Shown piece by piece: positions 13,960 to 14,073 of a DNA stretch of 18,020 nt. The stretch comes from a virus (lineage: Duplodnaviria; Heunggongvirae; Uroviricota; Caudoviricetes). The stretch lies in IMG/VR virus record IMGVR_UViG_2657245664_000010. The stretch is one strand, 5' to 3'. Positions within the stretch are counted from its first letter, which is position 1. Each line of letters starts with the position of its first letter. A program made the position numbers and the translations under genes. Under the pieces are notes generated by a model. That model did not search any database. It was given only the letters and a program-made list of their open reading frames with translations, and had not been told where the DNA came from.

Positions 13960-14073
13960 TTTCGTCTACTCCGTTACAAAGCGAGGCTGGGTATTTCCCG
14001 GCCTTTCTGTTACCCGAAATCCACTGAAAGCACAGCGGCTGGCTGAGGAGATAAATAATAAACGGGGAGCTGT

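Follow-up and report, generated by a model that had tools for sequence, protein, structure and literature searches.

The existence of cryptic or "grounded" prophages, and the way in which deletions erode them, are well documented (PMC6379469). The DLP12 prophage of E. coli K-12, found at argU, has kept its int gene, and its immunity and replication region has also collapsed, with P' joined to 'exo (peaD::exoD; double colons mark deletion joints here). The Shigella flexneri serotype-converting phages SfI, SfII and SfV use thrW as their attachment site, and 2G7b (Nesevirus) is a temperate coliphage. Here, we compare these systems with one locus in a window of 18,020 nt, which is the whole stretch of DNA analysed; coordinates are positions in this window, and plus and minus strand are relative to the strand shown. 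The chromosomes of E. coli SCU-118 (human, USA) and CPE35 (pig) contain the window sequence at 100% identity, and an undeleted prophage is present at the same thrW site in E. coli BE311, as well as in F41 and K99S. It is nearly certain, in our judgement, that one internal deletion of 9,194 bp in a lambdoid prophage at thrW left the scar seen at this locus.

By gene content, the rusA-ylcG-quuD-porin-essD-rrrD-rzpD block is near-identical in DLP12 and the window element, and PGAP uses the DLP12 names for the window genes. The element is not DLP12 itself (argU, intD), as it lies at thrW by proA and its Int is of the SfI type; the DLP12 integrase gene shares about 75% DNA identity with it over only a part of int. 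DLP12 also has other breakpoints, IS3 and IS5 insertions and the extra cargo genes emrE and ybcK, whereas the window element has kept xis and the whole exo-xis accessory block, together with remnants of a Mu-like tail. The int-xis-attP module of the element shares 98% identity with that of SfI, SfII and SfV. Positions 21231-23493 of SfI, including the annotated attP core, match the window at 98.4%, with int at 387 codons and xis at 116 codons as in SfI. The tape-measure and DNA-circularization genes are 96% identical in these phages, and the prophage gene order is colinear. However, the element contains none of the gtrA-gtrB-gtr(type) genes that lie by attP in the Shigella phages (PGAP annotation, with no match to SfI gtr). 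The gtr end is replaced in the window by an AraC-family regulator, a GIY-YIG protein and an IS fragment, and the Q and porin region is of the 2G7b and DLP12 type. This cargo end, in which the GIY-YIG protein is LEM-3-like, is also seen in the lambda-like phages ev099 and mEp332. Coliphage 2G7b is 95% identical and colinear over bor/iss-lysis-porin-Q-rusA-nin-ninB and over DUF1317-DUF4222, and provides an independent map of the deleted genes, although it differs in its lambda-like siphovirus morphogenesis module, its integrase and its att site. The parent prophage is a hybrid, with an SfI/SfV-type int-xis module and a Mu-like tail combined with an early and late region of the lambda/DLP12 type.

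The BE311 prophage represents this parent at full length. It measures 41,756 bp between identical 48-bp att cores, the same cores as in the window element, and unlike the element it has a complete early region, morphogenesis genes and an IS421 insertion. Each retained segment of the window is 99.97-100% identical to it, with three mismatches in total over about 17 kb, and most of the retained genes carry the same protein accessions. Window positions 7367-13948 show 2 mismatches in 6,582 nt and positions 13945-18020 show 0 mismatches in 4,076 nt; between these two matching blocks, 9,194 bp of BE311 are absent. The BE311 annotation of this block reads ren, P, an O-like replication protein, cII, a cro-like HTH protein, an S24-peptidase repressor of the cI type, two hypothetical proteins, N, sieB, ral, DUF2528, cIII, kil, gam, bet and exo, and the block also carries codons 1-76 of ninB and codons 1-9 of DUF1317. 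The corresponding colinear gap measures 9.8 kb in the comparison with phage 2G7b and 9.0 kb in that with phage SfI. The early-region collapse proposed in the initial annotation is thus real, with 9,194 bp missing against BE311 and both flanking genes truncated exactly at the joint by Pfam. Its list of missing genes (exo, bet, gam, kil, cIII, N, the repressor, cro, cII, O, P and ren) holds as well, since none has a significant tblastn match in the window and all of them lie between the two breakpoints in the colinear BE311, 2G7b and SfI. The alignment to intact thrW phages that it had called for was carried out with BE311 and SfI, and the one with BE311 maps the deletion endpoints to the nucleotide.

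Could the early genes be hidden elsewhere? When all early proteins of 2G7b were compared with the whole window by tblastn, only NinB (residues 77-146) and DUF1317 (residues 7-55) were recovered, the rest being noise. For the immunity region (cI-type repressor, cro, cII and N), there is no tblastn match with E < 0.03 and no annotation. The replication genes O and P and the origin are absent by tblastn with 2G7b proteins, by the PGAP table and by comparison with BE311. Nor does the PGAP table show a repressor or replication gene anywhere in the element or in the 20 kb to each side of it. A displaced set of repressor, replication and Red genes in the window or its flanks was rejected on the basis of these tblastn searches and the PGAP table. 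The initial annotation would have been overturned by a full-length NinB or by repressor or replication genes within the element outside the window, and neither is found.

The joint itself is the tetranucleotide GGTA at 13945-13948, a 4-bp microhomology with one copy at each parental breakpoint. A megablast query made of window positions 12400-16700 was compared with phages and E. coli genomes, and every intact relative breaks into two pieces. These pieces overlap by four bases (query 1546-1549, equal to window 13945-13948), and three-way alignments with 2G7b and BE311 place the joint at the same point. The junction reads ...GCTGC(GGTA)GGTGCG..., the left parent continuing from GGTA into aacac within ninB and the right parent entering GGTA from ccg within DUF1317. 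The ninB breakpoint falls at codon 76/77, and the DUF1317 breakpoint falls 27 nt into the gene. The collapse had initially been placed at 13960-14073, which is 12 nt too far to the right, the joint lying inside the ORF called NinB. That interval is not a space between genes; it is a coding remnant within the 3' 51 codons of DUF1317. Likewise, the orf63-like gene does not abut the NinB fragment as was first described, because the truncated DUF1317 gene (13946-14101, plus strand) stands between them.

On the left side of the joint, the ninB' pseudogene (13735-13947, minus strand) consists of codons 77-146 and the stop codon of a 146-codon NinB/Orf gene. The initial reading of this gene as only a C-terminal half is borne out by Pfam, where NinB (PF05772) matches the ORF at 13735-13959 over profile positions 76-131 of 131 only, and by tblastn, where a full-length NinB query aligns over residues 77-146 with 98.6% identity. 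PGAP flags it as "missing N-terminus", and RefSeq already lists the NinB fragment as a pseudogene. The full domain is lacking, as residues 1-76 of the BE311 protein are deleted, including R41, Q45, N46 and W50. These four are conserved channel residues in the N-terminal half of NinB/Orf (PMC4118853), and with that half absent, NinB' cannot be a functional Orf. The ORF in which this remnant lies is a chimera of 74 codons with a GTG start (13735-13959, minus strand), in which, by translation, four initial codons of antisense DUF1317 rather than NinB precede NinB residues 77-146. At 13957-13972 on the minus strand, the GTG has a GGAG, itself antisense DUF1317, 9 nt upstream. Given transcription, the 74-aa product with its C-terminal NinB fragment could be translatable, as judged from these signals.

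On the right side, the remnant of the DUF1317 gene (lambda orf60a-like; 13946-14101, plus strand) lacks codons 1-9 as well as the start codon and the ribosome-binding site. What is left is the 3' 51 codons (residues 10-60) of the 60-aa version found in full in BE311, and Pfam DUF1317 (PF07026) matches positions 10-60 of 60 (E = 5e-32) in the plus-strand reading at 13946-14098. A 60-residue ORF with its own start is therefore not present, the profile match being partial, and the ORF lists contain no canonical in-frame start for the remnant. RefSeq/PGAP has called it as an intact 48-codon CDS (WP_032157150.1; 13955-14101, plus strand) with an ATC start, and equivalent CDSs of 147 nt are annotated in FORC 064 and 19AR1724. 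These CDSs are probably pseudogenes with a non-canonical start call. A consensus scan of 13500-14700 found no new sigma-70-like promoter at the joint, the sole match (14601-14630) being at chance level. The idea of a divergent promoter created at the joint was rejected, as nothing lies near it in that scan.

The genes around the joint retain a lambdoid layout, with int-xis by att and the exo-xis block on one strand, and nin, Q and holin-endolysin-spanin genes on the other. On the plus strand, DUF1382 (lambda orf63-like) is full length as a 63-codon ORF (14074-14265; Pfam positions 1-60 of 60), with the same protein accession as in BE311. The rest of the exo-xis accessory block (14342-15200, plus) encodes a hypothetical protein of 71 aa, a TraR/DksA zinc finger protein (14656-14874, plus) and DUF4222 (14922-15200, plus) by Pfam and PGAP. 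It is followed by the xis-like HTH_17 gene (15172-15522, plus) and the tyrosine integrase gene (15399-16562, plus; 98% DNA identity to the SfI int region). The retained plus-strand genes are the "exo-xis region" genes that have been studied in phage lambda and in Stx phages (PMC6213356).

On the minus strand, the retained nin/Q block (11519-13738) is 99.97% identical to BE311. By PGAP and Pfam, it holds a Dam-family MTase (13211-13738), ninE (13038-13214), ninX (12694-13035), a ybcO-like DUF1364 fragment (12484-12573), rusA (12125-12487), ylcG (11988-12128) and quuD, the Q gene (11519-11902). The intact prophage of BE311 also has this DUF1364 fragment, which lies between rusA and ninX and is without its N-terminus, as do TUM9803, ES9 and LR881940. 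It is an older scar, since it is found in apparently complete prophages too. The retained late block (8164-11329, PGAP) contains the porin gene (10232-11329, plus), the essD-rrrD-rzpD lysis cassette (8489-9659, minus) and the iss/bor lipoprotein gene (8164-8457, plus). The retained genes from int to iss are annotated intact by PGAP and are identical or nearly so to their BE311 counterparts, which agrees with the initial description of int/xis, the Dam-like MTase, RusA, Q and the lysis cassette as intact.

The element lies almost wholly within the window and spans 16,932 bp between intact 48-bp att cores. One core copy (16575-16622), which corresponds to the attP core annotated in SfI, overlaps the 3' end of thrW, a tRNA-Thr(CGT) gene found by ARAGORN at 16577-16652 on the minus strand and followed by proA. 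The second, an exact 48-bp copy, lies 262-309 nt to the left of window position 1, and beyond it are the chromosomal yagP' and paoABCD genes. No repressor or replication gene is hidden outside the window, since the element ends at the att cores and chromosomal genes lie beyond, with nothing phage-like among them. Positions 1568-1579 form the empty site of the IS4-family IS421, a 1,349-bp insertion found in BE311 only, where 12 bp are duplicated. In BE311 (NZ_CP097213.1, 3718000-3731551), a second island adjoins the distal att core of the prophage. This island encodes a further tyrosine integrase, a methylase resembling HsdM, an ATPase of the ORC/CDC6 type and a type 1 BREX system, and thrW seems to be occupied in tandem. 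At the position of that island, SCU-118 has the yagP' and pao genes. In E. coli ES9 (NZ_CM184323.1, 4010-6688), an SfI-type int and the att core are followed by the gtrA/gtrB-like yfdG and yfdH, with no thrW or proA. This int-att-gtr order is the phage (attP) order within a chromosome, and the early-region deletion of ES9 is larger (MTase'::'DUF1382).

The early-region joint is one of four. At a second joint (7367-7373), with the imperfect microhomology GCCGACA, 2,610 bp are lost, including part of the HNH gene, terS, terL, ymfR, the start of the portal gene and the cos region. At a third (6948-6951, TACC), 6,821 bp are lost, with the portal C-terminus, protease, capsid, connectors, sheath and tube. 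At a fourth (3595-3599, TACCC), 4,850 bp are lost, with most of the DNA-circularization protein, the baseplate genes and the tail fibre. The TACC(C) microhomology at 3595-3599 and 6948-6951 is the reverse complement of the GGTA at 13945-13948. The lengths add up exactly: 41,756 - (4,850 + 6,821 + 2,610 + 9,194) - 1,349 (IS421) = 16,932 bp, a total loss of 23.5 kb in four blocks against BE311. Particles would be impossible even with an intact early region, because the three other deletions hit packaging, head and tail genes. The element thus shows what marks a defective prophage of the DLP12 kind, as it is bounded by att sites, has four deletions, lacks essential genes and keeps some genes intact.

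A remnant that keeps int, xis and both att cores may also bring to mind a functional minimal element, such as a satellite or a phage-inducible island, that naturally lacks early genes. This is very improbable here. Each of the four joints interrupts genes within their reading frames, loss of the cos region and terminase precludes helper packaging via cos, the PGAP annotation contains no regulator or replication gene of the satellite type, and a full-length parent of 99.97-100% identity exists. The thought that the joint is an assembly artefact is scarcely credible, as it is identical in two independent complete genomes, from human and pig, and in many draft assemblies. Directly observed here are the gene arrangement of the parent, the nucleotide position of each breakpoint, the microhomology of 4 bp and the intact state of the flanking genes. 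The collapse is ordinary prophage decay.

The distribution of the joint raises the question of where it arose. The exact joint is found in only 2 of 5,426 complete E. coli genomes, and in a public assembly collection, 197 blocks have a call for exactly the 74-aa protein of the chimeric ORF. At one further locus (L018; GCA_016791725.1, JADBET010000046.1, 2109-6225), the same ninB'::'DUF1317 joint lies by a lambda-type int/xis/Exc/ea8.5/ea22 module. Near-identity of this locus to the window is confined to about 13245-14460, roughly 1.2 kb around the joint, with 96.4% identity overall, a pattern implying that the scar may move between prophage backgrounds by homologous recombination. Since L018 shares the joint on a diverged prophage, the window lineage may have inherited it rather than generated it. 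The joint could then have arisen elsewhere and been imported from an already deleted prophage, which would fit both its record in 197 blocks and the short near-perfect match. We consider such an import unlikely, because both flanks are identical to intact BE311 for kilobases, so that the imported tract would be SNP-free or very short, and because the transfer could equally have run from the window lineage to L018. Shared descent explains the L018 joint, given the same partner and the shared 1.2-kb segment.

A deletion of this parent prophage in place thus remains the favoured origin, and its most likely course can be outlined. The GGTA in ninB would have been joined to the GGTA in the orf60a-like DUF1317 gene, with loss of the early block between them, several small ORFs included, presumably by a RecA-independent, short-homology (illegitimate) event whose right end fell on a recurrently used TA. 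However, the join may be other than a purely random short-homology event, because this TA in DUF1317 is reused by other deletions.

The TA in question, at window 13947-13948 (BE311 NZ_CP097213.1, 3770632-33), is the exact endpoint of deletions with six different partners (the window and loci L010, L011, L014, L015 and L016). The partners are ninB in the window, P in FORC 064, ydaT in 19AR1724, Rz of the lysis region in EC21Z-048, xis in the exoD::xisD joint of K-12 DLP12, and int in LR881940, the last two keeping the opposite side. TA stands at the crossover in every partner for which undeleted sequence is available; the ydaT partner of 19AR1724, for which no undeleted parent was available, is outside this count. 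Four of the joints keep the right side, with DUF1317 alleles 93-96% identical to one another, two of which are identical to intact alleles. The events at the DUF1317 site are independent, because the partners and retained alleles differ and two alleles match intact ones; shared descent was rejected for them on the same grounds. With a 201-nt probe centred on the DUF1317 site, about 380 of 3,575 E. coli records show truncation, and among the matches listed, 5 of 7 truncated records end at or within GGTA. The corresponding probe for the ninB site shows truncation in 6 of 1,309 records, and the ninB endpoint was accordingly rejected as a hot site.

Other endpoints are reused too. A TA in P (BE311 3762631; ..CTGCTG TA CCTGCGG..) is common to three deletions whose P alleles differ by 4-7%, and a TT in the MTase gene of the nin region is the endpoint of two deletions. 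The early-region collapses known from other E. coli include TUM9803 (P'::'bet), EC0026B (P'::'MTase), AF56 (P'::xis'), ES9 (as above), FORC 064 (P'::'DUF1317), 19AR1724 (ydaT'::'DUF1317), EC21Z-048 (Rz'::'DUF1317) and LR881940 (MTase'::'exo and DUF1317'::'int). Among the mapped joints, 10 of 12 have TA at the crossover, mostly within GGTA/TACC. TACC(C)/GGTA accounts for three of the window's four joints, and two null models put the probability of this by chance at about 6e-4 to 3e-3.

These patterns suggest that the right breakpoint may be a hot site, with a sequence-directed activity that cuts and rejoins DNA at TA and so drives recurrent collapse of early regions, a reading to which we give an appreciable but less than even chance. 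Exact reuse with six partners, the TA in every partner that can be checked, the independent alleles at the four right-keeping joints, the contrast between the two probes, the reuse in P and the MTase gene, and the excess of TA and TACC(C)/GGTA joints all speak for it. Candidate enzymes include junction resolvases, among them the RusA encoded by the prophage itself, type II topoisomerases, and enzymes resembling serine recombinases or transposases for which the crossover dinucleotides must be identical. At a junction, RusA cuts preferentially on the 5' side of CC (PMC1636454), which fits a cut between TA and CC at many sites, but several parental sites have no CC beside the TA and fit poorly. 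Int acting at secondary att sites is unlikely, because the integrases differ among the elements. Against a hot site, the partner sites have little in common beyond TA(CC) and hairpin potential is not unusual; moreover, the breakpoint-reuse analysis is post hoc and covers about a dozen joints mapped by hand. When both strands were folded at the DUF1317, P and MTase sites, no unusual hairpins were found (z from -1.8 to +1.4), and hairpin potential was dropped as a cause. By-eye matching to the thrW att core, the XerC arm of dif, the REP/RayT GTAG, the IS608 target TTAC, KpnI-like GGTACC palindromes and the BREX motif GGTAAG gave none that fits all sites. The literature offered nothing specific on a known hot spot of illegitimate recombination at exo/orf60a. 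In a broader form, which we put forward only tentatively, the TA in the orf60a-like gene, at the boundary of exo and the exo-xis region, and at least two further sites, in P and in the nin-region methylase gene, would be preferred break-and-join points of a sequence-directed process, at which lambdoid E. coli prophages may repeatedly and independently lose their early regions.

Whatever made the cut, its consequences for the remnant can be predicted from lambda biology. After the deletion, the divergent early operons abut head to head. By analogy with lambda, pL, pR, both operators and the origin would have been lost along with the block, leaving no repressor, no inducible early transcription and no replication. 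Nothing would drive the nin genes and Q, and Q-dependent late transcription should terminate; the lysis cassette is likely silent, because there would be no N-dependent read-through into Q. Both att cores are intact in sequence despite the loss of the early region. Excision is nevertheless unlikely unless Int and Xis are supplied in trans, because pL and the cII-dependent activation of pI would be gone. The initial claim that the prophage cannot regulate, replicate or excise and grow thus stands where the absence of genes from the element supports it, and excision failure and the silence of Q and lysis are expected by the same analogy. The porin and iss genes are encoded on the strand opposite to that of the early and late operons; each is presumably served by a promoter of its own, and their expression would still be possible. 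Because of the early-region loss and the three further deletions, the element is best seen, in the likeness of DLP12, as a locked-in cryptic prophage.

Taken alone, the finding is one more cryptic lambdoid prophage and adds little, because RefSeq already flags NinB as a pseudogene. It also supplies an exact pair of parent and remnant, in which four microhomology deletions, accompanied by almost no point mutations, reduced a prophage from 41.8 to 16.9 kb, and this pair bears on the rate and mode of prophage decay. In addition, one TA reused as an endpoint in at least six independent deletions, including that of K-12 DLP12, points to a hot spot. If a sequence-directed process is indeed at work, phage sequence, or an enzyme of host or phage, would in part program the "grounding" of prophages, which would not result only from random illegitimate recombination and selection.
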